A DNA stretch of 64,000 nt. Source: Desulfobacteraceae bacterium (GTDB taxonomy: Bacteria > Desulfobacterota > Desulfobacteria > Desulfobacterales > UBA5852). The notes under the pieces were generated by a model. It was not told where the DNA came from and searched no databases. It saw only the letters and a program-made list of their open reading frames with translations. Location: the NCBI GenBank assembly GCA_014237395.1, contig JABZFP010000029.1, forward strand, positions 50,537 to 114,536, in the 5' to 3' direction. Both the position numbers and the translations under genes were made by a program. Positions 24,518 to 55,076 of the stretch are shown here, in pieces. How positions within the stretch are numbered: the first letter of the stretch is position 1; each line of letters begins with the position of its first letter.

Positions 24518-24589
24518 GTTGGTTCCTCCTTTGCTGAATAAGTTCGTGGCAACGTCCTTATTCTAACATCGTTTGGGACCAACATGGTA

Positions 24590-24618: not shown

Positions 24619-25122
24619 ATGGCCCAAGTAACTTTAAAAGGCAATCCCGTGCAGACCATCGGTAACCTGCCCGCCGTCAGCGAGGCGGCACCCGGCTTTA
24701 CCCTGGTCGATAAGGATCTCAAGGAAATCTCGCTGCAGGACTATGCCGGTCAAAAAGTAGTGTTGAATATCTTTCCGAGTATCGATACCCCCACCTGCGC
24801 CATGTCGGTGCGCCGGTTCAATGCCGAGATCGGCAAACACGGCAATGCCGTGGCGGTTTGTGCGTCAATGGATCTGCCGTTTGCCCATGGCCGATTCTGC
24901 GGCGCCGAAGGCCTTGAAAAGGTGGTGTCGGCCTCCGCCTTTCGCCATCCTGAATTCGGGAATCACTATGGCGTCAGCATCACGGACGGACCCCTGAAAG
25001 GCCTTTTTGCACGCGCCGTGGTGGTCGTGGACGAAAACGGCAAGGTCGCCTATCACCAGCTCGTTCCTGAAATTGCCGACGAACCCGATTACGATGCCGC
25101 CCTGCAGGCCCTGGCGGGCTGA
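24619..25122 (+). CDS. tpx: thiol peroxidase (atypical 2-Cys peroxiredoxin)
   Basis: 167 aa with VTLKGNPV...APGFTLVDKDL...VLNIFPSIDTPTCA. RBS aaggagg at 24607. Confidence 0.93.
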   Translation: MAQVTLKGNPVQTIGNLPAVSEAAPGFTLVDKDLKEISLQDYAGQKVVLNIFPSIDTPTCAMSVRRFNAEIGKHGNAVAVCASMDLPFAHGRFCGAEGLEKVVSASAFRHPEFGNHYGVSITDGPLKGLFARAVVVVDENGKVAYHQLVPEIADEPDYDAALQALAG

Positions 25123-26897: not shown

Positions 26898-27619
26898 ATC
26901 ATGAACCCGCATCGCCGGCCGGCCTGACGTGGCCACCCCTCGTCCGGGGAACGCTGATCAAACGCTACAAGCGGTTTCTGGCCGACGTGATACTGGAAAA
27001 CGGCACGACGGTCACCGCGCATTGCCCGAACACCGGCAGCATGACCGACTGCTGCGAACCGGGCCGCCCCGTCTACCTGTCGGTTCACGACAACCCCAAA
27101 CGAAAATACCCCTATACCTGGGAGCTCATCCAGATGCCGGACTCACTGGTGGGGGTCAACACACTGGTGCCCAACCGGCTCGTCAAACATGCGATTCGGA
27201 CCGATCAGGTTGCGCCGCTGCGGGGTTATACCGAAGTGCGGTCCGAAGTTCAGATGGGCGCCCGCTCCCGGGTGGATCTGATGCTACAGGACGATGACCG
27301 CGGCACCTGTCATGTGGAAATCAAGAATTGCACCATGGTTAGAGACGGCCTGGCGCGCTTCCCGGACGCGGTCACGACCCGGGGCTTGAAGCACTTGCAT
27401 GAACTTACGGCTCAGCTTTCCGAGCGTAACCGCAGCGTCATGTTCTACCTTATCCAGCGCATGGATGCGGAAGAATTTCGTCCAGCCGATGATATCGATC
27501 CCGCCTATGGTAAAGCCCTGCGGCAGGCGGTGGCGCGAGGTGTTGAAATTCTCGCCTATGATGTCCATATTGACCTGAATGAAATCCGCCTCAATCAGCA
27601 CCGGCCCTGCCGCCTGTGA
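26894..27619 (+). CDS. sfsA: DNA/RNA nuclease SfsA (sugar fermentation stimulation protein)
   Basis: GTLIKRYKRFLADVILENGTTVTAHCPNTGSM...VEIKNCT. The start overlaps the mobB stop. Confidence 0.9.
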   Translation: MNHEPASPAGLTWPPLVRGTLIKRYKRFLADVILENGTTVTAHCPNTGSMTDCCEPGRPVYLSVHDNPKRKYPYTWELIQMPDSLVGVNTLVPNRLVKHAIRTDQVAPLRGYTEVRSEVQMGARSRVDLMLQDDDRGTCHVEIKNCTMVRDGLARFPDAVTTRGLKHLHELTAQLSERNRSVMFYLIQRMDAEEFRPADDIDPAYGKALRQAVARGVEILAYDVHIDLNEIRLNQHRPCRL

Positions 27620-27743
27620 CCTGTCGCAGTGTGGATAAAGCCTTGTAACCTCTTGATCTGATTTCTTATATCGATTGACTTTGCGCGCTGCATACAGTAT
27701 GGATAATCCGACAATGACACCTCGCGTCGGATAATGGAAGCCC

Positions 27744-29114
27744 ATGTCGGAAACCAACCTGAACCGAATTCTGGCCCCCCGGGAAAACCTTGCCCGTATT
27801 CTCGATAACCTCAAAGAAGGGGTTATTGCGCATGACCTGAACCGCCGGATCTTCTTCTTCAATCACCAGGCCGAACAGATTACCGGCTTCAGCCGGGAAG
27901 AAATTCTGGGCCGCGACTGCCACGACGCCTTCGGCATCCCTTTTTGCGGCGAGCGCTGCTCCTTCTGCGACCCCGGCGAGTTGGCCCCCGGGAACCTCGA
28001 CAAAAAAGAATACACCCTCAATATCACCACCAAAACCTGTGAAACCCGCCGTATCGATATGAGCGTCACCATGATGCGGGATGCGTCCGGCAACGATGTC
28101 GGCGTCCTGGCCCTGTTTCGTGACATAACGGACGAACTGCGGCTGCAACTGCAATCCGGCAACCTGGATCGCTTTTCCAATATCATCGGGCGGGATGCCA
28201 AGATGCTGCAGGTGTTTCAGCAGATCAGCGACGTCGCCGCCTATGACTACCCGGTTCATATTTTTGGGGAAACCGGCACCGGCAAAGAGTTGGTGGCCAA
28301 TGCCATTCACAATGAAAGCCACCGGGCCGGCACCCCCTTCGTCCCGATCAATTGCGGGGCCCTGCCGGAGGGGTTGATCGAAAGCGAGCTGTTCGGCCAT
28401 GTCAAAGGGGCCTTTACCGGCGCCATCCGCGATAAGAAAGGCCGCTTCGAACTGGCCGACCGCGGCACCATCTTTCTGGACGAAGTGGCGGAGCTGTCCA
28501 AACCCATGCAGGTCAAACTGCTACGTTTTCTACAGGAGGGAACCTTAGAGCGGGTGGGGGGCGAGAAGACGATCTCCGTCAACGTCAAGGTGATCAGCGC
28601 CACCAACAAGGATTTGAAGGAAGAAGTGCGGCACGGCGCGTTTCGGGAGGATCTGTTCTATCGCCTGAGCGTCATCCCGATCTACATCCCGACCCTGAGG
28701 GAACGCCGCACCGATATCCCCCTGCTGGTCAACCATTTCATGCACGAAGCGGCGCTCAAGCACAACCAGGCGTCACTTCGTATGTCAAAAGAGGCCATGT
28801 CCCTGCTGATGGACTACGCCTGGCCCGGCAATGTCCGGGAACTCCAGAATGCCATCCAGTTTGCCCTGGTAAAATCAAGCGGCCGTATGATCACCATCGA
28901 CGATCTGCCCATGGAGATTCGGGCGATGCGCCGCGAAACCCTGCGCCGCGGCCCCACACGCAAGCTGAACCAAGCCACAGTGCGGCGCGCGCTGGCGCAG
29001 ACGGCCGGCAACAAATCCAAAGCGGCCCGCCTGTTGGGTGTAGGCCGCGCCACCCTGTATCGTTTTTTGAATGACCATCCCGACCTGGCCGACCAGGAAC
29101 AAGCCACGCCCTAA
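27744..29114 (+). CDS. sigma-54-dependent transcriptional activator (PAS with Cys4 motif, AAA+, Fis HTH)
   Basis: PAS domain with C59-x8-C-x3-C-x2-C. GETGTGKE Walker A, GAFTGA loop, ELQNAI, and C-terminal AARLLGVGRATLYRFL. Confidence 0.92.
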   Translation: MSETNLNRILAPRENLARILDNLKEGVIAHDLNRRIFFFNHQAEQITGFSREEILGRDCHDAFGIPFCGERCSFCDPGELAPGNLDKKEYTLNITTKTCETRRIDMSVTMMRDASGNDVGVLALFRDITDELRLQLQSGNLDRFSNIIGRDAKMLQVFQQISDVAAYDYPVHIFGETGTGKELVANAIHNESHRAGTPFVPINCGALPEGLIESELFGHVKGAFTGAIRDKKGRFELADRGTIFLDEVAELSKPMQVKLLRFLQEGTLERVGGEKTISVNVKVISATNKDLKEEVRHGAFREDLFYRLSVIPIYIPTLRERRTDIPLLVNHFMHEAALKHNQASLRMSKEAMSLLMDYAWPGNVRELQNAIQFALVKSSGRMITIDDLPMEIRAMRRETLRRGPTRKLNQATVRRALAQTAGNKSKAARLLGVGRATLYRFLNDHPDLADQEQATP

Positions 29115-29154
29115 AGCGACCGCCTTTCTGGAAACCCTGCGATGACGAAACCGT

Positions 29155-29508
29155 CTATCGTTTCACGCCCAGTTGCTCCTTGAGCCAGGCTTTCACGTCG
29201 TCATCCAGAGCGTAGACCCCTTTCAATTCGCATACATCTTTTTCAAAACGGGCCGGCAATTCGAACTGGGCCAATTCTTTGGCTTCATCGGAATTGCGCT
29301 TGATCAGGTAAATCGTATACGGCCGGTTCCAGCAGTTGACCACAAAATAGGTCGTGTAGTCGTCTTTGGAAGCGATCACATACCCATCGCCGCGCGCCCA
29401 GTTGTTTCCCCACTCCAGGTAAAGCCGCACCGCCTCTTCGGGTGTCATGTTCCAGTCAATCTCGTCGATAATCGCCTGGTTGCCGCGCAATTCTTCCAAT
29501 GTCATCAT
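29155..29508 (-). CDS. hypothetical protein (117 aa)
   Basis: Protein-like composition (MMTLEELRGNQAIIDEIDWNMTPEEAVRLYLEWGNNW...). Lies downstream of cooS on the same strand. The antisense ORF 29173-29670 is rejected. Confidence 0.6.
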   Translation of the reverse strand: MMTLEELRGNQAIIDEIDWNMTPEEAVRLYLEWGNNWARGDGYVIASKDDYTTYFVVNCWNRPYTIYLIKRNSDEAKELAQFELPARFEKDVCELKGVYALDDDVKAWLKEQLGVKR

Positions 29509-29834
29509 AAGCGTACCTTTCGGGCTAAATTATGGTGGCCCCCTAAAAAGCAAGAAAGTTACCTGCTTTTGTCAATCCGGCAAAAGAGGCTGTTTCGTGA
29601 TTACAAAATGGACTCTTTTTTGTCCCGTCATGCCGGACCCGATCCGGCAACCCGTATCGTGGCACATTGAAAAAACAACTGGATTTCGGGTCAAGCCCTG
29701 AATGACGGATTTAAGACTTTTAGGAATCCATGAATTAACTTTCCTCAAAACATATCCGTGCATCGGTATTGATATGAAAAAATCATAACCATCGTCGATG
29801 GTTGCGACAAGTCCACGCGACCACCGGAGACGCC

Positions 29835-29870
29835 AAAAAAACAGGCGGAGCTGATACCACGCTCCGCCTG
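29835..29870 (-). terminator. rho-independent terminator after cooS
   Basis: 10-bp perfect stem CAGGCGGAGC (29842-29851) / GCTCCGCCTG (29861-29870). On the minus strand it is followed by a T7 run (A-run 29835-29841). Confidence 0.75.
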
Positions 29871-29900
29871 CCGATTGACTAAATACTACCGATTTACGAA

Positions 29901-31868
29901 TTAGGCCGACAGTTGCTGACGGTCGGTCATGTCCATCAGGACCCGCTCGCGGGCCTTGTCGATACCGAGCGCCTTGCGCTTGGCATCGATGTGGGCAATC
30001 ATCATGCGGGCCATCTCATAAGGATCCGGGGTGAAGCCCCATTTCCCCAATCCTTGTTCTTCAAGCCCCTTGAAGAGGTGCCTGTGGAACTTGGTTTCTT
30101 CAACAATGGGGAAGGTCACCCCAAACACGGTGTAAACACCGGACGCCACGAAATACTGCCCGATGCAGATGGCTTTCTCGCTCATCCATTCGGGGGCGGC
30201 GCCGGCCACCGGCAGATCGGCAATGCTCTCACCGAGACCACCAGTCTTGACCATCTCGGAAGCCGCGATCAGAATCCGGCTGTTGTCGACGCAGGACCCG
30301 ATGCCCAGAACAGGCGGCATACCGACCGTCTCGCACACTTCCTTGAGGCCGCTGCCGGCCAGATGTGCGGCCTCCGGCGTGCACAGACCGGCCTTGGCCA
30401 GCGCAATCTGAGAACAGCCGGTCTGCAGCACCAGGACGTCGTTCTTGATCAGTTCCTTGACCAGCTCGACATGCACCCAGTCCTGTTTGACCCGGGGGTT
30501 GGTGCAGCCCACGACCCCGGCCACGCCGCGGATGCGGCCGTTGATGATGTTGTCGTTCAGTGGGGTGTAGGAACCACGAAAGGTGCCGCCCAGCATGTAG
30601 TTGATGTATTCGTGGGAAAAACCATGCACGCCAGCGTGGGTGTTCTTGGGGATTTCAATTTCACACGTACGGTTCTTGAAACGATGAATGGCTTTGATCA
30701 CCATGGCATCGGTGCAATCCCGCGGGGTATGCTCATGGAACTCGATATGCTCGGCCCCTTCGATGTGGCAACGCGGGTTGGTGGTGAAAAGCGGGGTCTT
30801 GTAGCAGTCGGCCACGGCCACCAGCCCCTGCTTGATGCACTGCACGTCCACACACATGGCATCCACGGCCCCGGTCACCAGGACCGTCTCGGTGGACATG
30901 AAGTTGCCGGCATGAGGAATGCCGTGCCGCACCATCATTTCTGCCCCGGAGCAGCACATGCCCACCAGGTTGATGCCCTTGGCGCCGGCGTCTTTGGCTT
31001 TTTGCACGATCATGGGATCCGTGACCGAAACCAGCATGGACTCGAACAGGTTAGGCTCATGGCCGTGGACGATCACATTGACCTGATCCTCCTTGAGCAC
31101 GCCCATGTCGACATCCACGGCCACCGGGGTGGGGGTACCGAACAGGATGTCGGCGATCTCGGTGGCCACCATGGAGCCGCCCCAGCCGTCCGCCAATGCC
31201 GTGCGGCTGCACTGTTTGGTGATGTTCTCGTAGTGCTGGTCCACCCCCATGTGGGTGCGGTGCATGAGTTCCATGATCTCCCGCATGGCGCCGCGGGGCA
31301 CGATGCCGAGTTTGCGCCAGGTCTCAAGGGTTTTGGCCGGAACCCGTTTGGCAAAGGGGATCTCGCCTTCGACCTGGATGTAGGTGCGTTCCAGCTCGTG
31401 ATAAAGATCGGTAGCAATCTCTTTGACGCTGCGGCCTTCGGTTTCAATCCCGATTTCCTGGGCCACGCTTTCCAGTTTCTGGACATCCTTGATCTCGTAA
31501 TCCAGGATCTTGCCGTTCACCACTTCACGGAAGAGGTCCAGCATGCTCATACCGTGGTCGGTATGGGCTGACCCACCGGCCGCCACCATACGGGCAAAAT
31601 TGCGGGCCATGATCGTGTCGATGGTGGCGCCACAGACACCGACTTTGTCGTAGGGCGCGTTGGCATTCAGCCGGCAGGGCCCCATGGAACAGTGTTTACA
31701 GCAGGCGGAATTGGCACCGATCGGGCAGGCTTTCATGTTGGCGGCACGATCGAAAGCGGTTTCGACCCCATCCCGTTTGGCCTTTTCAAGCATCTGGGCG
31801 GTGGAATCGCAAATGGTCACGTCCTTGGTGACAATCTCCTTCTTGGAGACGATTTTCTTCTTTTCCAT
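29901..31868 (-). CDS. cooS: anaerobic Ni-Fe carbon-monoxide dehydrogenase catalytic subunit
   Basis: 655 aa. N-terminal D/B-cluster cysteines CPIGANSACCKHCSMGPCRL, with HGHEP, GMCCSG and other typical CooS blocks. Confidence 0.93.
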   Translation of the reverse strand: MEKKKIVSKKEIVTKDVTICDSTAQMLEKAKRDGVETAFDRAANMKACPIGANSACCKHCSMGPCRLNANAPYDKVGVCGATIDTIMARNFARMVAAGGSAHTDHGMSMLDLFREVVNGKILDYEIKDVQKLESVAQEIGIETEGRSVKEIATDLYHELERTYIQVEGEIPFAKRVPAKTLETWRKLGIVPRGAMREIMELMHRTHMGVDQHYENITKQCSRTALADGWGGSMVATEIADILFGTPTPVAVDVDMGVLKEDQVNVIVHGHEPNLFESMLVSVTDPMIVQKAKDAGAKGINLVGMCCSGAEMMVRHGIPHAGNFMSTETVLVTGAVDAMCVDVQCIKQGLVAVADCYKTPLFTTNPRCHIEGAEHIEFHEHTPRDCTDAMVIKAIHRFKNRTCEIEIPKNTHAGVHGFSHEYINYMLGGTFRGSYTPLNDNIINGRIRGVAGVVGCTNPRVKQDWVHVELVKELIKNDVLVLQTGCSQIALAKAGLCTPEAAHLAGSGLKEVCETVGMPPVLGIGSCVDNSRILIAASEMVKTGGLGESIADLPVAGAAPEWMSEKAICIGQYFVASGVYTVFGVTFPIVEETKFHRHLFKGLEEQGLGKWGFTPDPYEMARMMIAHIDAKRKALGIDKARERVLMDMTDRQQLSA

Positions 31869-32088
31869 TTTGGCTCCTTTCCAAAAAAGCGGGTGGCTAT
31901 TGCCGGTTTATCGTTCTTGTCGATTAAAAATGATTGGATGCCCTCATGCCTTGCCATGGAAACCCATCAAAACGCCGGGCGTAAAAAACAGCCCTTGGAT
32001 GCATGGCGCCGACATCAGGGAGCACGGTTTAGAATAAATAGTTCAACATCAACGGGAAAACAGAATCAGGGAACGAGTCAATAGCTAA

Positions 32089-32104
32089 AGCAAGTTTCAG
32101 ACCA
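32089..32104 (-). promoter_or_regulatory. candidate sigma-54 (-24/-12) promoter for cooS
   Basis: Minus strand reads TGGTCT-GAAAC-TTGCT with GG-N10-GC spacing exact. Lies about 220 nt upstream of the cooS ATG, with a sigma-54 activator gene 2.8 kb away. Confidence 0.45.
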
Positions 32105-32967
32105 ATCTTGTTTTATAGCAAATCCAGATGTGCCGGAGAGCGAATTTCCGATGCAGAATACAATCTAATTGGTGGAAAGCCTCTGTTTTATATAGATAAT
32201 CCATATCATTTCAAACAATTCGAGGATCCCCCATGGTCTGCCGATCCATAGCGCTTCACAGGCACGGGGAACCGTCTTTTTTCATATCTTGAGACATTTT
32301 CCCGATACACTTACGATGCGAAGCGAAGCAATTCTATTAATTTTAAATAACCAATAATAACAATTCGTTATAAAATAATAAAAAATATTTTGCGCCCCAT
32401 TGTCATTTAAGAAACGTATCTTGAGGCCGCATATGGCGTTGCACCAAAACCGTCATTTTTCTGTGGTTTCATGAAAATCACGTATCAAACAGGTTACCGT
32501 AACTTACCCATTAGCTTAAAATGATAACTATTCCTATTATCATTAGCGGTTATGACACCGCGATGTCAAGTACCAAGGTGGATCTATTTGTCTTCGCAAG
32601 ACACTTGTGTATCACTGAAAACTCGATACACTTTACTGCGGTGATCCAACGACATCGAATTCGGGTTCCAACCCCCAGTGTACCCTTTTAAGGAAATGAC
32701 CATGTCCGCATCCCAGTCCAACCGATGGACCAACAGCCGCCGCCTGGTCCACGCTGTTGGGAAATCCCCGGGGCGGAGAACCCCCGGCTATCGGTCCGGC
32801 GCACCCGCGCCTGACGGTCAACCGGCTCCTTTTCAGTCTGTCATGGGATGGATTTTGGCATTGAAAGAACGCCGTAATTATAATATTCACGAAACCAATA
32901 CGGGGCGGATACGCGCCTCGGGTATGCACTGCGATTGTGTTCCCTCCCAGCGAAAGGATGTACGCAC

Positions 32968-33222
32968 ATGAGCGACAAACCAGTCAAAGTCTATTCCCTG
33001 AGCACCTGCAGCCATTGCAAAGCCACCAAAAAACTGCTGGATGAATGCACCATCCAGTTTGATTTCGTCGATGTCGATCTGCTCGAGGGCGAAGAACGCA
33101 AGGCCATGGTGGAAGAGGTCAAAGCCGTCAACGAACGCTGTTCCTTCCCCACCATCATCATCGGCGACAAAACCATCGTCGGCTACAAGGAAAAAGAGAT
33201 CAAGGAGGCGCTGGGCATGTAA
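32968..33222 (+). CDS. glutaredoxin-like / NrdH-like small thioredoxin-fold protein
   Basis: From ATG 32968 (RBS gaaagga): MSDKPVKVYSLSTCSHCKATKKLL...FPTIIIGDKTIVGY, with a CxxC active site. Confidence 0.85.
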   Translation: MSDKPVKVYSLSTCSHCKATKKLLDECTIQFDFVDVDLLEGEERKAMVEEVKAVNERCSFPTIIIGDKTIVGYKEKEIKEALGM

Positions 33223-33554
33223 TGGACGTCGAAAAGCTTTATGCCATGCTTGAAAAAACCCAGACCGCCCAGGGGTATTTCTTCAATGCCGACCGGGAGC
33301 GGACCATGGAACTGCTGGAAGCGCTCCTGAAAAACAAGGACCGTTACGGCTACATGGTCTGCCCCTGCCGTCTGTCCTCCGGTGACCGGGAAAACGACAA
33401 GGACATCATTTGTCCCTGTGTTTACCGCGCACCGGATGTCGAAAAATACGGCAGTTGCTACTGCAACCTCTACGTTTCCAAGGCCTGGAACGACGGCACC
33501 ATCGACCGTGACTTCGTCCCTGAACGGCGCCCGCCGGAGAAAATCATGTTCTGA
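33222..33554 (+). CDS. ferredoxin:thioredoxin reductase catalytic-subunit-like protein
   Basis: 110 aa with CPCR...CPC...CYC spacing characteristic of FTR beta. The third motif is CYC instead of CHC. The start overlaps the glutaredoxin stop. Confidence 0.8.
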   Translation: MDVEKLYAMLEKTQTAQGYFFNADRERTMELLEALLKNKDRYGYMVCPCRLSSGDRENDKDIICPCVYRAPDVEKYGSCYCNLYVSKAWNDGTIDRDFVPERRPPEKIMF

Positions 33555-33632
33555 TCTCCCTTTTCCGGCAACAATGTCACCGTGAAAAGTTGATGCCGGG
33601 CCTCAGGCTCTGGTTCAGGCCAAATCCTGAAC

Positions 33633-33773
33633 GAAGTTGATTGCACGCGTTTCATCGTGGTTCAGCGCAAGGCGCGCGGTTGGCTGCAAGCGGAGCATAC
33701 GCGGGTATGTGAGCATTGCGGCCGGCCGTGCAACACCGTGCTGTGCCGCGAGGTGACGCGTGCAATCAACTTC
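33633..33773. repeat. structured palindromic repeat, copy R3
   Basis: Perfect 18-bp arms GAAGTTGATTGCACGCGT (33633-33650) / ACGCGTGCAATCAACTTC (33756-33773). Core has gcaaggcgcgc, hairpin GCATAC-gcgg-GTATGT (33695-33710) and gtgcaacacc. The right arm ends on the first nt of the nqrF stop codon. Confidence 0.75.
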
Positions 33774-34993
33774 TATCCGAAGTCGTCGAACGCAATCATC
33801 TCCCGCTCAACCCCCAATGCATCCAGCATGTTCATGACAGCGCTGATCATCATCGGTGGTCCGCAGAGATAATACTCGATCTCGGTGGGGTCTTCGTGGT
33901 CTTTCAGATAGAGATCGTGGGCCGCCTGGTGAATGAACCCCGTGGGGCCGTCCCAGTTGTCTTCCGGCTGGGGTTCCGAAAGTGCCACGTGGTAGCTGAA
34001 ATTGGAAAAACGCGCCTGCAGGTCCTTGAACTCCTCGTCGTAGAACATCTCCTGGCGCGAGCGGGCGCCGTACCAGAAGGTCACCTTGCGGGACGTTCCC
34101 AGATCCAGCAACTGGTTGAAAATATGGCAGCGCATGGGGGCCATGCCGGCGCCGCCCCCGATGAAACACATCTCCCGGTCGGTGTCCTTCACAAAAAAAT
34201 CGCCATAGGGGCCGCTCAGGACCACCCGGTCACCAGGCTTCAGGTTGAACACATAGGAGGATCCCACGCCGGGCGGCAAATCCATCTGACCCGGGGGCGG
34301 TGTGGCAATCCGGATCGTAAACCGCAGGAGGCCCTTTTCCGAAGGCGGGTTGGCCAGCGAGTAAGCCCGGTTGACCGGAACATCCGTACCCGCTTTGAGG
34401 GACAGGAAGTTAAACTGTTTCCAGGCGGTCCGGTAGGCGTCGGCAACGGAGAACTCGGCAAAATCCGCCTGGTATTCCGGCACATCGATCTGCATGTAAG
34501 CCCCCGCCGTGAAGTCCACCGCTTCACCCTCGTCCAGCTTCAGCACCAGTTCTTTGATGAAGGTGGCCACGTTGTCGTTGGAGACCACGGTGGCATTGAA
34601 TTTCTGAATATTGAAGATCTCTTCCGGAACACGGATCTTTAGATCCTGCTTGACTTTCAGCTGGCAGGCCAGGCGTACGTGATCGAGGCGTTCCTTGCGG
34701 CTGACCAGCGACAATTCCGTCGGGAGAATATCGCCGCCGCCTTCATCCACCTGGCACTTGCAGGTGCCGCAGGTGCCCTTGCCGCCACATGCACAGGGAA
34801 TCAGGATGTCGTTGTCGAGCAGCGAGGCCAGGAGAGTTTTGTTGGTGGGCGTGGATATGGATTTATCGTCATCGTCATTGATGACGATGCGGCGGTCCCC
34901 TTTGATCACCACTCGGGCTTCCACGAGCAGGAGCGTCCCCACCAGGAGCAGGATCACCGATAAAAATACCGCCGTACTGATAAAATAAATCAC
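33773..34993 (-). CDS. nqrF: Na+-translocating NADH:quinone oxidoreductase subunit F
   Basis: 406 aa with an N-terminal TM, the 2Fe-2S ferredoxin motif CACGGKGTCGTCKC and an FAD/NADH-binding FNR-like domain (RAYSLAN, GGGAGMAP). Confidence 0.93.
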   Translation of the reverse strand: MIYFISTAVFLSVILLLVGTLLLVEARVVIKGDRRIVINDDDDKSISTPTNKTLLASLLDNDILIPCACGGKGTCGTCKCQVDEGGGDILPTELSLVSRKERLDHVRLACQLKVKQDLKIRVPEEIFNIQKFNATVVSNDNVATFIKELVLKLDEGEAVDFTAGAYMQIDVPEYQADFAEFSVADAYRTAWKQFNFLSLKAGTDVPVNRAYSLANPPSEKGLLRFTIRIATPPPGQMDLPPGVGSSYVFNLKPGDRVVLSGPYGDFFVKDTDREMCFIGGGAGMAPMRCHIFNQLLDLGTSRKVTFWYGARSRQEMFYDEEFKDLQARFSNFSYHVALSEPQPEDNWDGPTGFIHQAAHDLYLKDHEDPTEIEYYLCGPPMMISAVMNMLDALGVEREMIAFDDFG

Positions 34994-36296: not shown

Positions 36297-37015
36297 ACGA
36301 GTGCGTTCTCCGGAAGCTTGAGCATGCCCTGGTTGCGAAAATGGACGGAAACCGGCTCATAGGTCTGCAGAATGTCTTCCAAGCCCTGGCTCAGGAACTT
36401 GCCGGTCATGGTGGCACCGCTGATGCCGTCGACGTAGTTCGGCTTGAGATCCTGCCGAACGGCATCCTCCACGGCGCCCTTGGCAATTTTGATGGACACG
36501 AAATTCCCTTCGGCATCGATGATCTGCTTCCCCACGAAATTGCGCTGAAACCATTGATTTTCGATTTCGCCGCCCAGACCGGGGGTTTCGGAGTGCTGGT
36601 AAACGGAAAAGCCGGTTATCGTGCTGCCATCCGTATCCAGGGCCAGATAGCCGTAAATGCGACCCCACAGGCCGCGGCTGTCCACCGGGATGATATAGGC
36701 TTTTACTTGCCCGTCGGCCCGGTAGAGGTAGAGCGGCAGGACCTTCTTGGGTGCCGCCTTGGCGGACAGGACCTGCCCTTCGTCGTCGATAGAAATGCAT
36801 TGAATCGAGGATTGATACAGCGCTTTGATCGCGTCGGCCGGATAAGAGCGACCCGATTCCACGGCCCCCACGGCCTGCAGGATATTCTTCTGCCGATCGA
36901 CCAGGGCATTTTCCCGCTGAAACGCCTTGAGGCCGGTGGCCGCCATCGTCAGCAGCAAGCTGCAGACCAGGCAAAGGCCCGTGGCAAACAGGATGGTTTT
37001 AACGCCGTCAGACAT
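36278..37015 (-). CDS. nqrC: Na+-translocating NADH:quinone oxidoreductase subunit C
   Basis: 245 aa with an N-terminal TM anchor and the FMN attachment motif DGISGATMT. Confidence 0.9.
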
Positions 37016-38352: not shown

Positions 38353-39696
38353 TCAGGCCTGCTCTTTGCGGTGGGCATGTTTGGCCGCCTGCAGGGTGGC
38401 CGCAAGTTCGATCTTGGACGGGCAGACATAGGTGCACAGGCCGCACTCGACACAGTCCAGAAGACCTTGTGCCAGATATTCCTCCACCTCTTCCGCCAGA
38501 ATGCTCTTGAGGGTCATCTGGGGCCAGATATCCACCGGGCACACATCGGCGCAGTAGCCGCAGGCGATGCAAGCCCGGCGGCCGCCGTTCACATTGGTGG
38601 TCATCGGCAGGGGCGCCCGCCGCAAGGCGGACAGGAAGGTCCGCGAATAGGTGGGCTTGTTGGGGCCGGGGCGGAACAGCGTCAGGAAATCGACGTCACC
38701 CGGTTCCGGCAAGACGGCCAGCGCTGTTTCGTACAGCCCCATGTGGCCCTCCGGATCGCCGGTATAGCCGCGCAAAACGCCGCCCACCAGGTAGCGCGGA
38801 TCCCGGCAGCCAATCTCCCCTGCCAGGTCTTTGATCGGCGCCCCCATCCGCGATGCGACATAGCGCGGCGCGGCCGCCCCGGTGCCGGCAACCGCAAACA
38901 ACCGCGCGGTGGGGTACGCACCGCTTTGCAGCAGTTGCGCCATCAAAAGCAGATCCTGACCGTCGATGAACCAGGCCGTGTTCTCCTCCGGCGACCGGCG
39001 AACCTGGAAAAGCACCACCCCCGGATCGTCGGCCGGGTAACGCCCCTGCACCCTGTGGGTGATGAGTTCCTGGTGCGCTTCGCAAAAGGCCCGATCAGCG
39101 GCATCCGCATGCACATGGACGGTGGGAGACAAGCGTTTAAGGGCCCTGAGTCCCAGCTCGAAAAGCGCACGATTGTTTTCCAAATACCGCGCCGGCGGCA
39201 CCTGAAACGGTTCGCGATGGTCGAGGCTGACGAAAATGGCCGGGGGCACCTGCTCCGGATCCGCAATGTCGCGATACGGCAGGGCCCGCAGCAACGGCCA
39301 CACGCCGCCCGCCAGAAGGTGCGCCACCAGCTCCGCCCGGGGATACCGATCGATTGCGTCCCCGTCCAGAGGCCGGCCCAGGGATGTCACGGGTTCATTT
39401 TCGGCGTCGCGTCGGATGACGATTTCGCGCAAAACGCGCCGTGGTCCGTAATGAATGGCGTCGACCCGTCCACCCCCCGGTGAGAGAAATCGAAATCGCG
39501 GGTTGGTTTTATCGGTGAAAAGCAGATCACCGACAGCGACACGGTCGCCTTCCGCGACTGCCAGACGGGGCCGGACAAAAGGGATATGCTCGGGAAGCAC
39601 GGCCACCGTCGCCGGTAATGCGATCGTCTGCGACGTTTCCAGCGGTGCCCCCTGAATGGGGAGGTCATAGCCTTTGGCGGTTCGAACGGATATCAT
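38353..39696 (-). CDS. nqrA: Na+-translocating NADH:quinone oxidoreductase subunit A, with C-terminal 2x[4Fe-4S]-type Cys motifs
   Basis: 447 aa with an NqrA-type N-terminus (KGYDLPIQGAP...VRPRLAVAEGDRVAVGDLLFTDK). No RnfC GLGGAGFP flavin/NADH motif. The C-terminus has CIACGYCADVCP and CVECGLCTYVCP. Confidence 0.85.
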   Translation of the reverse strand: MISVRTAKGYDLPIQGAPLETSQTIALPATVAVLPEHIPFVRPRLAVAEGDRVAVGDLLFTDKTNPRFRFLSPGGGRVDAIHYGPRRVLREIVIRRDAENEPVTSLGRPLDGDAIDRYPRAELVAHLLAGGVWPLLRALPYRDIADPEQVPPAIFVSLDHREPFQVPPARYLENNRALFELGLRALKRLSPTVHVHADAADRAFCEAHQELITHRVQGRYPADDPGVVLFQVRRSPEENTAWFIDGQDLLLMAQLLQSGAYPTARLFAVAGTGAAAPRYVASRMGAPIKDLAGEIGCRDPRYLVGGVLRGYTGDPEGHMGLYETALAVLPEPGDVDFLTLFRPGPNKPTYSRTFLSALRRAPLPMTTNVNGGRRACIACGYCADVCPVDIWPQMTLKSILAEEVEEYLAQGLLDCVECGLCTYVCPSKIELAATLQAAKHAHRKEQA

Positions 39697-46707: not shown

Positions 46708-47886
46708 CTAATGCATCGCTGCTTCGGTCGCCTGTTTCCAGAACGGCGACATGCTCCGCAGGCGTTCGATGATCGGCGGCATCTTATCCACGATATAATC
46801 GACCTCTTCCCTGGTGGTGTAATGGCTCAGGCTGTAGCGGATGGAACCGTGGGCCGCGGTAAAGGGCACCCCCATGGCGCGCAGCACATGGGAGGGCTCC
46901 AGGGATCCTGAGGTGCAAGCCGACCCGGAAGAAGCGCAAATCCCGTATTCGTTCATCAGCAGCAGTATCGCTTCGCCCTCCACGTATTCAAACGCAATGC
47001 TGGTGGTGTTCGGCAGACGCTCCGCCTGGCCGCCGTTCGCCATGGAACGGGGCACGGCCTGAAGCAGGGCCTGCTCCAATGTGTCACGCAGCTGCCGCAC
47101 ACGGGTTCCGACATCTTCCAGATTTTCGCCGGCCAGCGCGCAGGCGCGGCCCATCCCGACGATGCCGGGCACATTTTCGGTGCCGGCCCGGCGTCCGCCT
47201 TCCTGGTGACCCCCCACCACCATGGGCTTGAACTTGGTGCCCTTGCGGATGTAGAGCGCACCGATACCTTTCGGCCCGTGGAATTTATGGGCGGACATGG
47301 ACAGCAGGTCGACCCCGTTTTGGGAGACATCAATCGGGATCTTGCCCACCGTCTGCACCGCATCCGTGTGGAAAAGGATGCCGCGCGCGCGGACCTCCCG
47401 GGACAGGTCGTCGATGGGATTGATCACGCCGGTTTCGTTGTTGGCCCACATGAGGCTGACAATGGCCGTATCATCGCTTAGGCTCTCCAAGAGGGCTGTC
47501 TGTTCCAAACGGCCCTCACCGTCAACCGGGACAAACGTCACCCGGTATCCGTTTTTTTGGTACCGTTCGAACAAGGTTTTGATGGCCGGATGCTCCACCC
47601 GGGAGGTGACGATATGACGTTTGTCCGGGTTGGACTGCAAGGCCGCATGGATGGCCGTCGCATCGCTTTCCGTGCCACCGCTGGTAAAAAGAATCTCTTC
47701 GGGCCGGGCCCCGATCAGATCGGCCACCTGGGTGCGGGCCCGGCGGATATCGACGACCAGTCCCCCACCAAAACTGTGCATGCTGGAGGCATTGCCATAG
47801 CGCTCGGTAAAATAGGGCAGCATGGCCTCCACCACTTCGGGGGCAACTTTGGTCGTGGCATTGTTGTCGACGTAGATCGTCTTCAT
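46708..47886 (-). CDS. nifS: cysteine desulfurase NifS
   Basis: IYVDNNATT...FTSGGTESD...SAHKFHGPKG...SSGSACTS. Confidence 0.93.
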   Translation of the reverse strand: MKTIYVDNNATTKVAPEVVEAMLPYFTERYGNASSMHSFGGGLVVDIRRARTQVADLIGARPEEILFTSGGTESDATAIHAALQSNPDKRHIVTSRVEHPAIKTLFERYQKNGYRVTFVPVDGEGRLEQTALLESLSDDTAIVSLMWANNETGVINPIDDLSREVRARGILFHTDAVQTVGKIPIDVSQNGVDLLSMSAHKFHGPKGIGALYIRKGTKFKPMVVGGHQEGGRRAGTENVPGIVGMGRACALAGENLEDVGTRVRQLRDTLEQALLQAVPRSMANGGQAERLPNTTSIAFEYVEGEAILLLMNEYGICASSGSACTSGSLEPSHVLRAMGVPFTAAHGSIRYSLSHYTTREEVDYIVDKMPPIIERLRSMSPFWKQATEAAMH

Positions 47887-48713
47887 GAGCGCACCTCCTC
47901 CACCACCAAATCTTTGGATACCAGTTCACGGAGTTTGGCTTCCACGGTTTTTTTCAGGGTCACCTGGGAAGCCTTGCATCCGGCGCAGGTCCCGCGCAGC
48001 TTGACCATGACCCGATTGCCGTCCACATCCACCAGCTCGATCCCGCCGCCGTCCTGATGCAGAGCCGGTTTGATTTCCCGCTCAAGCGTTTCCTCGATCA
48101 GGCGGATCTTCTGGAGATTGGTCAACGGGGCGGCTTCCGACCGGATCGGCATGGGTTTGCCCTGCACCTGATCGATGATCGCCTGGATGTCTTCATGACA
48201 CTTGCCGCAACCCCCGCCGGCCTTGAGATGGCCGGTGACATCGTCGATGGTCACCAGGTGGTGGTCCCGAACCGTCGCTTCAATCTGCCGGTCCGTAATC
48301 CCGAAACATTCGCAGATGATATTGCCTTCCGGCTTCGGGACGGTTTCGCCCCGGTAACAGGCAATCGCTTTTTCCAGCGCTTCTTGCCCCATGACCGAGC
48401 AGTGCATTTTCTCCTTGGGGAGTTCCCCTAAAAAGCTGGCGATATCGTCATTCGTTATTTTCTCTGCTTCTTCCAGGGTCTTGCCGATCATCATCTCGGT
48501 CAGGGCCGAAGACGATGCAATCGCACTGGCGCACCCAAACGTCTGGAATTTGGCATCCGTAATGCGCCCGTCCGCATCCAGTTTGAAATAGAGGGTCAGG
48601 GCGTCCCCGCAGGACAGCGAACCCACCTCGCCCACCCCGTCGGCGTCTTCGATAACCCCGACGTTGCGGGGGTTTAGAAAATGCTCTTTCACTTTATCCG
48701 TGTATTCCCACAT
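47883..48713 (-). CDS. nifU: Fe-S cluster assembly scaffold NifU (three-domain)
   Basis: YTDKVKEHFLNPRNVG...GSLSCGDAL...FGCASAIASSS, a central CxxC pair and a C-terminal NifU domain (LRGTCAGC). Confidence 0.93.
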   Translation of the reverse strand: MWEYTDKVKEHFLNPRNVGVIEDADGVGEVGSLSCGDALTLYFKLDADGRITDAKFQTFGCASAIASSSALTEMMIGKTLEEAEKITNDDIASFLGELPKEKMHCSVMGQEALEKAIACYRGETVPKPEGNIICECFGITDRQIEATVRDHHLVTIDDVTGHLKAGGGCGKCHEDIQAIIDQVQGKPMPIRSEAAPLTNLQKIRLIEETLEREIKPALHQDGGGIELVDVDGNRVMVKLRGTCAGCKASQVTLKKTVEAKLRELVSKDLVVEEVRS

Positions 48714-48957: not shown

Positions 48958-49644
48958 TCAGGCCGAGGGAGCCTCGCTGTCTGCCGCCTGACGGCCTTTG
49001 CGCCGGCGTTTTTCCCAGTCTTCCAGCTCGACGCCTTCCGGGATTTCCTCCCAGCCCGTAATCATGGCCCGGATATGCGCGAAAATGGTGTGGCCCGTGG
49101 TGGTCATGTAAATATGGCCCACCAGAAAACTCAACACGCCGAATGCCCCCAGGATATGAATGGCGGCAACCACCGGAAGACTCAACCAATCCAGCCCCCA
49201 AGCCGCCCATGAATTATAGCTCCAGTAGAGAAACCCCGAGATCATCTGCACCGGCAGCAGGAACATGGCCACGGACAGGTAGGCGATGCGCTGCAGGGGG
49301 TTGTGTTTGGCCTCCTTGCGTTTGGGCACCGGGTGGGGATCGCCGCGGAAAATGCCGAGCATATAGTAGTGGATCACGGTAAACATTTTTTTGGTGGTGG
49401 GCACATACTGTTTCCACTCGCCGGTGGTCAGCAGCCAGAACACAAAAAAAGCAAAGGCGATGAGCCACCCCAGCCCCACAAAGTTGTGGACTTCGACGGC
49501 CATTTTGTATCCCAGCAACGTATAGAGGCCGTCCACCTCGAAGCCGGTCACCAGCAAAATGGTGATCAGCGCGGTCTGGAGCCAGTGCCAGAAACGTTCA
49601 TAGCGGGTATAGAGATAGGTGTTGACCATTTTTTTGCCTGTCAT
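48958..49644 (-). CDS. membrane cytochrome b (Ni/Fe-hydrogenase/FdnI/PhsC-type b subunit)
   Basis: 228 aa with RYERFWHWLQ..., four or five TMs and conserved His residues. Sits 4 nt downstream of the octaheme gene. Confidence 0.8.
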   Translation of the reverse strand: MTGKKMVNTYLYTRYERFWHWLQTALITILLVTGFEVDGLYTLLGYKMAVEVHNFVGLGWLIAFAFFVFWLLTTGEWKQYVPTTKKMFTVIHYYMLGIFRGDPHPVPKRKEAKHNPLQRIAYLSVAMFLLPVQMISGFLYWSYNSWAAWGLDWLSLPVVAAIHILGAFGVLSFLVGHIYMTTTGHTIFAHIRAMITGWEEIPEGVELEDWEKRRRKGRQAADSEAPSA

Positions 49645-51401: not shown

Positions 51402-51418
51402 TTGCAACGATGATGCCA
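51402..51418 (-). promoter_or_regulatory. sigma-54 (-24/-12) promoter for the octaheme cytochrome operon
   Basis: Minus strand reads TGGCAT-CATCG-TTGCAA, a near-consensus match, about 100 nt upstream of the ATG at 51303 and facing a divergent sigma-54 activator gene. Confidence 0.65.
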
Positions 51419-51646
51419 GTGAAAGCGTAGAGGGCGAAGCGAGAGACAAGAGGAAATAAGCACAACAATAATGATTCATTTATTATCACAACACACTAAA
51501 ATCAATATTTTTTTATCCATTATCCGGGCGTTGGCCGCGCTGGCGAAAAAAATGTCCTCGCGTACTCGAAGGCTCCTTGCCAAACCCGTTTGTTAAGCTT
51601 ATGTTAACACCTGTTAAGTTTACATGTTGACATCCTCAAAGGAGCG

Positions 51647-53008
51647 ATGCGGATGGACATTAGCAGTTTCTGGGAAACTATCGTCAATACATTGCATGAC
51701 GGACTTCTAGTCGTCGATGCCCGGGGAACCATTCTGAATATGAACCCGGCCGCTGAAAAACTGACCGGTTATTCCGCCGAAGAACTGGTGGGTCGCAACT
51801 GCCGCGTGCTGAACTGCTCGGGGTGCCAGATTTATGGCCGGGGCGCCGGCAAGGAGTGGTGCAGCCTCTATGTCCGCAACCGCATCCGGGCCAAAAAATG
51901 CACCATCACCGACAAAAACGGCCGGGCCCTGTTCGTCATGAAAAATGCCTCGGTGTTGAAAGACGATCACGGTAACGTGGTCGGCGCCATCGAAACCCTG
52001 ACGGACATCTCCGAAATTGTTCGCCAGCAGCAGGAAATCATGTCGCTGCGCCAGACCTGTCGCCTGGATGACGGGTTTCACGGCATTATCGGCCACGCGC
52101 CGTCCATGCAGCGCCTGTTCGAATTGATCGACAATGTCGCCCAGAGCGACGCGCCGGTGCTGATCCACGGCCCCAGCGGCACCGGCAAAGAACTGTCGGC
52201 GCTTGCCGTGCACGAGGCCGGACCGCGTAAAACCAAACCGTTTATCAAAGTCAACTGCGCCGCCCTCAACGAAAATCTGCTGGAAAGTGAACTCTTCGGC
52301 CATGTCAAGGGCGCCTATACCGGTGCCGACCGGGCGCGCATCGGGCGATTCGAAGCGGCCCACGGGGGTACCATTTTTCTGGACGAAATCGGTGATATTC
52401 CTTTGGCCACCCAGGTCAAACTCCTGCGGGTGCTGGAAGAAAAGGAGATCGAACGGGTGGGCGATCACCACCCCATCGCCGTCGATGTTCGCATCATATC
52501 CGCCACCAACAAAAACCTGGAAAAAAGCATCGCCGAAGGCCTGTTTCGCGAAGATCTCTATTTCCGGATCAATGTCTTCCCCCTGACCATGCCCGCCCTG
52601 CAGGACCGCATGGAAGATATCCCGTTGCTGGTGCAGGGATTCATCACCCAGAACAACCAGCGCAGCGGAAAAACGATCGAAGGTCTGTCCCCCGAAGCCA
52701 TGGACGCCCTGCTAAGCTATACCTGGCCTGGCAATGTCCGCGAACTGCGCAACACAATCGAGTATGCCTTCGTCCTGTGCCCCGGCGGTTGGATCGGTCC
52801 GGTGCATTTGCCGCAACGTATTGTTCGAGGAACCCCGGCAACCGCCTCCCGCGATATCCCCGCCGGACCGGAGCGGGAGGCCCTGCTGAATGCCCTGCGA
52901 CTGGCCAATGGCAACCAGTCCGAAGCCGCCCGGCATTTAGGCGTCAGCCGGGTCACGGTCTGGAAGCGGATCAAAAAGCACGGTATTGATCTGCACCGTG
53001 ATCTTTAA
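51647..53008 (+). CDS. sigma-54-dependent transcriptional activator (PAS with Cys4 motif, AAA+, Fis HTH)
   Basis: PAS domain with C52-x4-C-x2-C-x11-[21 protein letters not shown], and [16 protein letters not shown]. Confidence 0.92.
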
Positions 53009-53166: not shown

Positions 53167-54117
53167 ATGGAAAACGACCCCCTCGACCGAAAATCCGTTT
53201 GCACCCGGGAAGCCGGCCTGCTCTCCGCCTACCGGGAAAAAATTCCGGCTATCGCCGAAGATATCATTCATATCTGCGATGACGTGAAATGCTACACGCA
53301 TGTGGAGTACGATCCGATCCCCTCCCGGGAATCGGTCGTGGCGATCATCAACCAGTTTCGGGGAATCATCTTCCCCGGCTATTTTTCCAATGAAAAACTA
53401 GACCCCGTCAACCTGCGCTACAGCCTGGGGCAGGCCGTATCCCACTTTTTCGACAGCCTGTCTCACCAGGTCTCCCTGAGTGTGCGGCATGAATGCTTCC
53501 GCCACAACCGGCCCTGCGCCCGCCATACTGAAAAGGGGTACCAAGTAGCCCTTGAAATCCTGCAGGCCATCCCGGAGCTCCGTAAGACCCTGGCGGCTGA
53601 CGTACAGGCCGCCTTTGACGGCGACCCGGCCGCCAAAAGCCATGACGAGATCATTTTCAGCTATCCCGGCATGTACGCCCTCACGGTCTATCGCCTGGCC
53701 CACCGCCTCTATCGACTGGACGTTCCGCTGCTGCCGCGCATCATGACCGAGTACGCCCACAGCCATACCGGCATCGACATCCACCCCGGCGCCCGCATCG
53801 GCAAGCGTTTCGTGATCGATCACGGCACGGGGGTCGTCATCGGTGAAACGACCCAAATTGGCGACAATGTCCGCATTTACCAGGGGGTGACCTTAGGCGC
53901 CCTGTCGCTGCCGCGCGACAAGGTATCCGAATTGCGGCAGCAGAAACGCCACCCCACCATCGAAGACAACGTGATTATCTATTCGGGGGCCACCATCCTC
54001 GGCGGAGAAACGGTCATCGGGGCCAACACCACCATTGGCGGCAATGTCTGGTTGACGGAATCCGTACCGGCCAACACCCGCGTCATGCTGGAGACCCCCA
54101 AGCTTGTCTACAAATAA
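53167..54117 (+). CDS. cysE: serine O[17 protein letters not shown] (long form)
   Basis: [16 protein letters not shown]...[43 protein letters not shown] hexapeptide region. Confidence 0.92.
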
Positions 54118-54149
54118 GCGTTCGGAGCCTGTCCGACGCCACAGGAGAA

Positions 54150-55076
<927 letters not shown>

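Follow-up and report, generated by a model that had tools for sequence, protein, structure and literature searches.

A predicted iron-sulphur PAS activator of the sigma-54 class beside a stand-alone carbon monoxide dehydrogenase gene in Desulfobacteraceae

We analysed a stretch of 64,000 nucleotides (nt) from a Desulfobacteraceae bacterium (contig JABZFP010000029.1, positions 50,537 to 114,536; hereafter the window), in which the gene for a sigma-54 enhancer-binding protein with a cysteine-rich PAS domain lies close to cooS, the gene for the catalytic subunit of a nickel carbon monoxide dehydrogenase (Ni-CODH). The activator gene is flanked by mobB, sfsA, a DVU0772-family gene and cooS (Pfam and NCBIfam). 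The DVU0772-family gene sits between the convergent activator and cooS genes and had been missed in an earlier reading of this DNA, made from its letters without database searches (the sequence-only reading). Further candidate control elements lie in the intergenic region upstream of cooS. The central features, in window coordinates, are as follows.

27744 to 29114, plus strand: sigma-54 enhancer-binding protein gene, 456 amino acids, with PAS, AAA+ (GAFTGA) and HTH_8 domains (Pfam, NCBIfam, motif positions)
27918 to 27968, plus strand: codons for Cys59-x8-Cys68-x3-Cys72-x2-Cys75, including His60 and Asp61, the putative iron-sulphur (Fe-S) ligand loop (invariance among homologues, alignment with OrpR)
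29155 to 29508, minus strand: DVU0772-family gene, 117 amino acids, 3' of cooS (NF045682, 103 bits against a cutoff of 45)
29835 to 29872, minus strand: intrinsic terminator after cooS (12-bp GC stem and T7; dG -28.5 kcal/mol, z -5.7)
29901 to 31868, minus strand: cooS, Ni-CODH catalytic subunit, 655 amino acids, closest to clade-E enzymes (TIGR01702, PDB matches, ligand motifs)
32089 to 32104, minus strand: sigma-54 promoter-like element TGGTCTGAAACTTGCT (exact GG-N10-GC spacing, conserved)
32290 to 32309, minus strand: proximal candidate enhancer (upstream activating sequence 1, UAS-1), TGTATCgggaaaaTGTCTCA, about 190 nt upstream of the -24 element (conserved block, motif enrichment)
32520 to 32538, no strand assigned: Fur-family operator AATAGGAATAGTTATCATT, near the Desulfovibrio PerR consensus (position weight matrix (PWM) score 25)
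32564 to 32570, minus strand: conserved CTTGACA, -35-like, preceding the Fur-family operator (30 of 34 cooS upstream regions)
32588 to 32630, minus strand: distal candidate enhancer UAS-2, TGTATC-N10-TGATACA then TGTCTT-N4-AGACAA (conserved block, six loci)

Pfam divided the activator into a PAS domain (residues 15-131), a Sigma54_activat domain (PF00158; 147-313, E=1.5e-70), an AAA_lid and an HTH_8 domain (415-440). Its Walker A (GETGTGKE, 175-182), GAFTGA (222-227) and FLDEV (244-248) motifs are intact. With an N-terminal sensor, an AAA+ domain that carries GAFTGA and Walker A and B motifs, and a C-terminal Fis-type helix-turn-helix (HTH), the protein belongs to the NtrC/NifA class. Many NCBIfam activator models matched it, every one under its equivalog cutoff, and it therefore receives no curated name. 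When relatives were sought in one genome per species, 377 species had one. We examined the best 80 loci, which came nearly all from Desulfobacterales metagenome-assembled genomes (MAGs), together with Desulfosarcina widdelii PP31. The HTH region is near-invariant throughout. The activator appears to belong to a large, well conserved family, mainly of Desulfobacterales, that is paralogous to OrpR, a redox sensor of Desulfovibrio discussed below.

The four-cysteine PAS motif that the sequence-only reading had placed at residues 59-75 was confirmed in the translated open reading frame (ORF). Cysteines lie at positions 59, 68, 72, 75, 99 and 204, and C-x8-C-x3-C-x2-C spans 59-75. Of the 120 closest database homologues, which are 66-90% identical, 119 keep this motif, and so it is not a product of chance; the family signature around it reads DCH[ED]AFGxPFCG[EQG][RH]CxFC. 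His60, next to Cys59, is invariant in the family, and Cys99 is variable among the same 120 homologues. Database relatives of the PAS domain show both three-cysteine and four-cysteine forms of C-x-[DE]-x-F-x4-C-x3-C; the underlying HMMER search, against 1.84 billion representatives, returned mostly multi-PAS proteins and served only to show this coexistence. Among PDB entries, the PAS domain's best profile match was 9wex_A, a 132-residue PAS domain of a sensor histidine kinase, the cysteines of which (C-x2-C-x11-C) fall in the loop equivalent to Cys59-75. An AlphaFold2 model from a 22-sequence alignment gave a good PAS domain outside the cysteine loop and did not resolve the AAA+ domain. Foldseek comparison of this model with the PDB returned generic sigma-54 activators only (TM about 0.2), and we set it aside.

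A known sigma-54 activator whose PAS domain carries a [4Fe-4S] cluster is OrpR (DVU2106), from Desulfovibrio vulgaris Hildenborough (Fievet 2021; PMC8359166). Its C52, C61 and C65 are conserved and required, D/E54 has been proposed as the fourth ligand, and the protein is active at low redox potential and turned off by oxidation (PMC8359166). The sigma-54 contact loop of DVU2106 is GAFTDA (PMC4641369). Taking the published OrpR enhancer, GGGCGYRTTTTGCGCCC, as the query, we searched metagenome contigs and so retrieved OrpR-type loci for comparison. An activator adjoins this enhancer in four loci, and in two of the four a site stands on each side of the activator gene, as published for OrpR. The protein of one locus (L148) has C52, E54, C61 and C65 exactly at the published OrpR positions, and it shares GAFTDA with the proteins of two others (L169 and L147). 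Aligned over 116 residues, the PAS domains of the window activator and of the OrpR-type protein are 34% identical (E=9e-16), and C59, C68, C72 and D61 fall in register with C52, C61, C65 and E54. Both kinds of protein have the one-component layout of PAS, AAA+ and HTH_8, and both carry the loop C-x-[D/E]-x6-C-x3-C in common register. Both come from anaerobic sulfate-reducer lineages, with a cognate sigma-54 promoter, in the window a candidate one, adjoining the regulator gene. An Fe-S cluster within the window activator's PAS domain is a reasonable expectation.

The window family differs from OrpR in several respects. It adds an invariant fourth cysteine (Cys75) and the invariant His60, its contact loop is GAFTGA rather than GAFTDA, its candidate enhancer consists of TGTMTCA repeats rather than GGGCGYRTTTTGCGCCC, and its neighbours are cooS and DVU0772 here and cydAB in other species, whereas OrpR is flanked by the two orp operons, which encode MinD/ParA-type Fe-S ATPases and the orange protein. 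Between 14281 and 39424 the OrpR enhancer had no match with three or fewer mismatches, and its three matches in the window are at chance level. Nor did we find a MinD/CooC-type P-loop ORF, as sought for the orp-type MinD/ParA Fe-S ATPase, within the window. Full-length identity to OrpR-type proteins is about 40%, equal to that with an unrelated second activator in the window (below). Strict orthology with OrpR was rejected on this identity, the missing enhancer, the missing orp genes and the GAFTGA loop. Because the upstream activating sequences and neighbour genes differ from those of OrpR, the comparison most likely describes a separate, paralogous family with a new regulon, distinct from that of OrpR, and a known kind of redox sensor. 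The sequence-only reading had seen in the locus a third, undescribed route of regulation; this claim falls, as OrpR already is an Fe-S PAS sigma-54 activator with an in-register cysteine triad.

The same four cysteines could instead bind a structural or regulatory zinc ion, or form a thiol-disulfide switch, with the regulon unchanged. Four invariant cysteines in a short loop would also suit Zn(Cys)4, the fourth is absent from OrpR and from some relatives, and confidence of the structural model is low in this loop. We nevertheless judge this alternative quite unlikely, given the exact register with the experimentally implicated triad of OrpR, acidic residue included, and given that the best PDB profile match is a sensor-kinase PAS domain with cysteines in the equivalent loop. 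NreB of Staphylococcus is a [4Fe-4S] PAS oxygen sensor with a histidine kinase output and the cysteine motif C-x2-C-x11-C-x2-C. It resembles the window activator in that a cluster is proposed on four cysteines inside a PAS domain, in an equivalent part of the fold; it differs in spacing (C-x8-C-x3-C-x2-C in the window) and in output, which in the window is an AAA+ activator. The second cysteine-rich PAS sigma-54 activator of the window (453 amino acids; 51647-53008, plus strand) is 40% identical to the first and carries C-x4-C-x2-C-x11-C, a more NreB-like spacing; a homologue with a similar motif occurs in a metagenome locus (L187).

CooS scored 591 bits against TIGR01702 (cutoff 478). Its best PDB matches were 6t7j (Thermococcus AM4) and 6vwy/6b6v (D. 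vulgaris), and the weakest was CooS-V (7b7q). In alignments to 6t7j and 6vwy it keeps the B-, D- and C-cluster ligand motifs (C-x7-CC-x2-C-x4-C, VHGH, GMCC, QCI, VGC, TGC and GSC). A clade-D (CooS-V-like) non-CODH identity was rejected, on the weakness of the CooS-V match and the presence of all C-cluster ligands. The strong terminator that the sequence-only reading had noted after cooS was borne out by its folding energy. The same reading had called cooS solitary. Neither Pfam annotation of roughly 44 ORFs across the window nor a P-loop regular expression found cooC, cooF, acs or hydrogenase genes, so the description stands for these partners, but DVU0772 and a glutaredoxin-reductase gene pair (below) travel with cooS. 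A literature search on DVU0772 found nothing.

We next consider the region upstream of cooS, in which TGGTCTGAAACTTGCT lies 221 nt ahead of the cooS ATG. It had been put forward as a -24/-12 promoter, and its sequence, position and exact GG-N10-GC spacing proved correct; taken alone the element is at chance level, and its support comes from conservation across loci. TGGTCYG-N4-TTGCT is found 174-235 nt before the cooS ATG in ten related loci and at 80 nt in an eleventh (L006), and a TGGCATG-N4-TTGCC variant is found at 211 nt in a twelfth (L024). Around this conserved island the spacer is variable and the flanks are barely alignable across the 12 related Desulfobacterales loci. The significance of the predicted element derives from this conservation, not from a single occurrence, and the pattern is as would be expected of a functional sigma-54 promoter. 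In a third clade (four loci) a candidate element, TGGCACGGAAATTGT, with GT in place of GC, precedes cooS. The unusual -24/-12-like string recurs once more (TGGTCTGCAGCTTGCT) at 36954-36969 (minus strand), inside the nqr cluster, where it is probably coding.

UAS-2 stands about 500 nt upstream of the -24 element, and both UAS blocks are built of TGT(A/C)TC(A) half-sites. In 1.07 Mb of related loci the density of TGTMTCA is 0.15 per kb, and clusters of at least three sites number only four, each lying just upstream of a sigma-54 promoter that adjoins an activator. For 12 such promoters, the 330 nt on the upstream side hold 25 sites against 0.6 expected. A k-mer ranking made without prior choice over 10 less-redundant regions placed TGAGACA (6/10, P=1.9e-8) and GATACA (7/10, P=4.9e-6) at the top. 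Among cooS upstream regions, nearly all TGTMTCA sites, and all position-conserved pairs, occur in loci that have the -24/-12 element. The same motif precedes sigma-54 promoters beside orthologous activators at other genes, namely cydAB (L068, L070 and L079) and DVU0772 (L019 and L071). The D. vulgaris sigma-54 regulome paper makes no mention of cooS, cydAB or the TGTMTCA motif.

A separate module lies between the two candidate enhancers. CTTGACA followed, 26-37 nt on, by a 19-bp Fur-family palindrome (consensus AATAGTAATCATTACTATT) is present in 21 cooS upstream regions, those of the window and of 20 related loci across Desulfobacterales. The operator AATAGGAATAGTTATCATT is the only strong PWM match in the 64 kb. 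In the window clade the module is about 700 nt from the cooS ATG, with the sigma-54 promoter in between; where a clade lacks the -24/-12 element, the module stands closer to the ATG, at only about 100-200 nt, and is the sole recognisable promoter. We infer that the CTTGACA module is a promoter, one for which the spacing between CTTGACA and the -10-like hexamer is non-canonical in the window clade. For Desulfovibrio PerR the published consensus is AwnAGnAAtngTTnCTnwT, and the predicted regulon includes hypothetical gene 206199 (PMC545781). The window operator resembles this consensus, and it could equally belong to Fur. We take hypothetical gene 206199 to be DVU0772. In Carboxydothermus hydrogenoformans, CODH-IV has been suggested to supply peroxide detoxification with electrons drawn from CO (PMC1287953). 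The window differs from these systems in that neither a perR gene nor rubrerythrin was seen beside cooS.

To place the pair in context, we compared 53 species-level loci in which the sequence runs on for at least 4 kb downstream of the activator. The cooS gene is within 5 kb downstream of the activator in 28 of the 53. DVU0772 is beside the activator in 30, and is its most frequent neighbour, in either orientation; CydA is found in 3. At least one of these genes is present in 43 loci, and all are missing in 10. Orthologous activators adjoin strong sigma-54 promoters driving cydAB in L068 and L079, and sigma-54 promoters precede DVU0772 in L019, L071 and L079. The cydAB-type loci are from Syntrophobacter-like and Desulfohalobiaceae MAGs; in them TGTCTCA repeats come after the activator, and then a strong sigma-54 promoter and cydAB, encoding cytochrome bd oxidase (L068 11330-13300, L079 4060-7600, and L070). 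The activator of L077 has as its target a small secreted protein gene with different upstream palindromes, and its subclade probably has another DNA specificity. In six loci, octamer-like tandem arrays (CAACGGGC / GGCCAACGGGCTCAACC) fill the spacer between the activator and a DVU0772 gene on the same strand.

With moderate confidence, we favour the reading that an OrpR-like Fe-S PAS activator drives cooS through the TGTMTCA repeats and the sigma-54 promoter in response to a redox or oxygen signal, with the Fur-family module layered on top. The activator and cooS, which the sequence-only reading had linked, remain a plausible regulator-target pair on synteny, the conserved element and the co-occurring repeats, though many adjacent loci are without the element. 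A number of observations count against this reading. The two genes converge rather than diverge. The window holds 7 occurrences of TGG-N8-TTGCW against 5.7 expected, a 9/12 match to the consensus turns up about once per 4.7 kb per strand in related loci, and the -24 hexamer TGGTCT is weak, agreeing with TGGCAC at three of six positions (TGG only). In about half of the loci where activator and cooS are adjacent, no -24/-12 element can be recognised upstream of cooS and the CTTGACA/operator module stands alone, so that being neighbours need not imply sigma-54 control of cooS. The AlphaFold model is poor (pLDDT 59) and within the PAS domain is weakest exactly at the cysteine loop. Finally, the enhancer motif was first spotted by eye in regions that were reused for the statistics, and some loci are related, which makes the P values optimistic; the independent targets, cydAB and DVU0772, are a stronger argument for the candidate enhancer than these values.

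Several of these points would also fit synteny without direct control, in which the activator acts on DVU0772 or on distant genes, cooS is transcribed from the CTTGACA/Fur module only and TGGTCT-N5-TTGCT is non-functional. That DVU0772 is the commonest neighbour in either orientation, and that clean sigma-54 promoters stand ahead of it in L019, L071 and L079, would be expected under this explanation, as would the weak -24 half-site and the many cooS loci with no -24/-12 element at all. It is less easily squared with the window itself, where no -24/-12 element, TGTMTCA site or Fur-family box precedes the DVU0772 gene, and where the element before cooS is the one conserved island in a region that cannot otherwise be aligned, and co-occurs with the repeats. 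We consider this explanation unlikely.

Three further features lie upstream of cooS and bear on its neighbourhood.

31892 to 31906, no strand assigned: conserved near-palindrome CCGGCAAT(A/T)GCCACC just 5' of the cooS ribosome-binding site (alignment, six loci)
32855 to 32884, plus strand: sigma-70-type promoter TTGGCA-18-TATAAT of the gene pair that follows (11/12 match, conserved)
32935 to 33554, plus strand: glutaredoxin-like (Grx) and ferredoxin-thioredoxin-reductase beta-like (FTRB) genes, divergent from cooS (PF00462, PF02943)

The Grx-FTRB pair was syntenic with cooS in 30 of 30 scorable loci. Between cooS and this pair, 12 loci contain a gene of about 730 codons for a YyaL/DUF255-like protein with a thioredoxin domain (for example, L012 14195-16486 and L023 4508-6700), which we recognised by eye from its HWCHVM motif; these insertions strengthen the thiol-redox character of the cooS neighbourhood. 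A thiol peroxidase (Tpx/Redoxin) gene is found at 24619-25122. Just upstream of it lies an IS110-family transposase gene (PF01548, PF02371; 23438-24517, minus strand), and a TGG-N8-TTGCT string occupies 24520-24535, between the two. The near-palindrome at 31892-31906 may be either an operator or an RNA element of the leader. A scan of 27000-34000 with Rfam at a permissive threshold gave no match, and no known riboswitch or small RNA thus accounts for the 1-kb intergenic region or the 220-nt leader.

The sequence-only reading had cast the activator as a CO-responsive regulator, but no feature that we found points to CO, and the context is one of redox and oxygen stress. CooA (CRP family, haem) and RcoM (haem PAS with LytTR) are the established CO-responsive regulators of coo genes. 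Like them, the window activator adjoins cooS, and like RcoM it would sense through a PAS domain. It differs in having no cNMP (cyclic nucleotide)/CRP or LytTR domain in Pfam, in its sigma-54-dependent mechanism and in a cysteine pattern that indicates Fe-S rather than haem. A Cys4 PAS domain that senses CO, or CO and redox together, and serves as a dedicated activator of cooS would be a third kind of CO sensor. Such a sensor would explain the position beside a canonical Ni-CODH gene and the absence of CooA and RcoM genes from Pfam scans of the window, and the invariant His60 next to Cys59 recalls the Cys/His ligand switching of known haem CO sensors. The cysteine pattern, however, fits the Fe-S sensor OrpR and not a haem PAS, and orthologous activators with the same upstream repeats adjoin cydAB or DVU0772 alone, without cooS. 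In addition, the genes around cooS belong to thiol-redox metabolism and peroxide defence, with a Fur-family operator, and the CO-utilisation partners cooC, cooF and hydrogenase were not found in the window. We regard a CO sensor of this kind as very improbable.

The OrpR-like reading would instead operate as follows. A redox-sensitive Fe-S cluster most likely sits in the PAS domain, with Cys59, Cys68, Cys72 and Cys75 as ligands, a proposed four-cysteine ligation where OrpR uses three cysteines and an acidic residue. The activator would probably bind the TGT(A/C)TCA repeats at 32290-32309 and 32588-32630 and, with ATP, would open the sigma-54 holoenzyme complex at 32104-32089, driving cooS through a leader of about 210 nt. 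The CTTGACA sequence and Fur-family (PerR-like) operator at 32570-32520 would provide a second layer of control on cooS. We favour cellular redox state or oxygen exposure over CO as the most likely signal, because of the Fur-family/PerR-like operator, DVU0772, the Tpx, Grx and FTR-like genes and, elsewhere, cydAB and YyaL. The domain architecture, cysteine invariance, OrpR register, synteny, promoter conservation and motif enrichment are computed results; that the activator binds a cluster and DNA and activates transcription, and in which direction it responds, we infer. Analogy with OrpR would have the activator on in its reduced state, switching on a fragile Fe-S enzyme only at low potential; given the oxygen-defence neighbours, activation on oxidation is equally conceivable.

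Other parts of the window also encode redox functions. The second activator gene is divergent from genes for an octahaem-type cytochrome c (PF11783; 49648-51303, minus strand) and a cytochrome b561 (48958-49644, minus strand). A -24/-12 element, TGGCATCATCGTTGCA, at 51403-51418 (minus strand) is a good match about 100 nt before the ATG of the cytochrome genes, and a weaker Fur-like box is found at 51464. Genes for a NifS-like cysteine desulfurase and a NifU-like scaffold of Fe-S assembly (46708-48713, minus strand) lie about 15 kb from the cysteine-rich PAS activators, and cysE-like and cysK genes are found at 53167-55076. An NqrA-like protein (38353-39696, minus strand) carries a C-terminal 2x[4Fe-4S] ferredoxin domain (Fer4, residues 375-429), an RnfC-like feature on an Nqr-type subunit; through NqrB/RnfD-type, D, E and F genes its nqr cluster continues as far as 33773.

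We also consider, as a tentative and on balance doubtful possibility, a broader role. A four-cysteine (and histidine) OrpR-type sensor, found in hundreds of Desulfobacterales species, would act as a master switch that couples redox or oxygen, and conceivably CO, to sigma-54-dependent expression of a stand-alone CODH, DVU0772 and cytochrome bd, together with a PerR-type repressor. If so, an orphan CODH would join an oxygen or peroxide defence module in which CO serves as the source of low-potential electrons; neither this physiological role nor this regulatory route has so far been demonstrated for a CODH. Context surveys find many CODHs without informative neighbours (PMC13056359). Most stand-alone CODH genes have no assigned role or regulator, and the locus offers a testable regulatory model for a widespread Desulfobacterales CODH lineage. 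These findings overturn nothing known; they would extend the OrpR paradigm, so far one protein with a two-operon regulon, to a larger paralogous family with four cysteines and oxygen-related targets.

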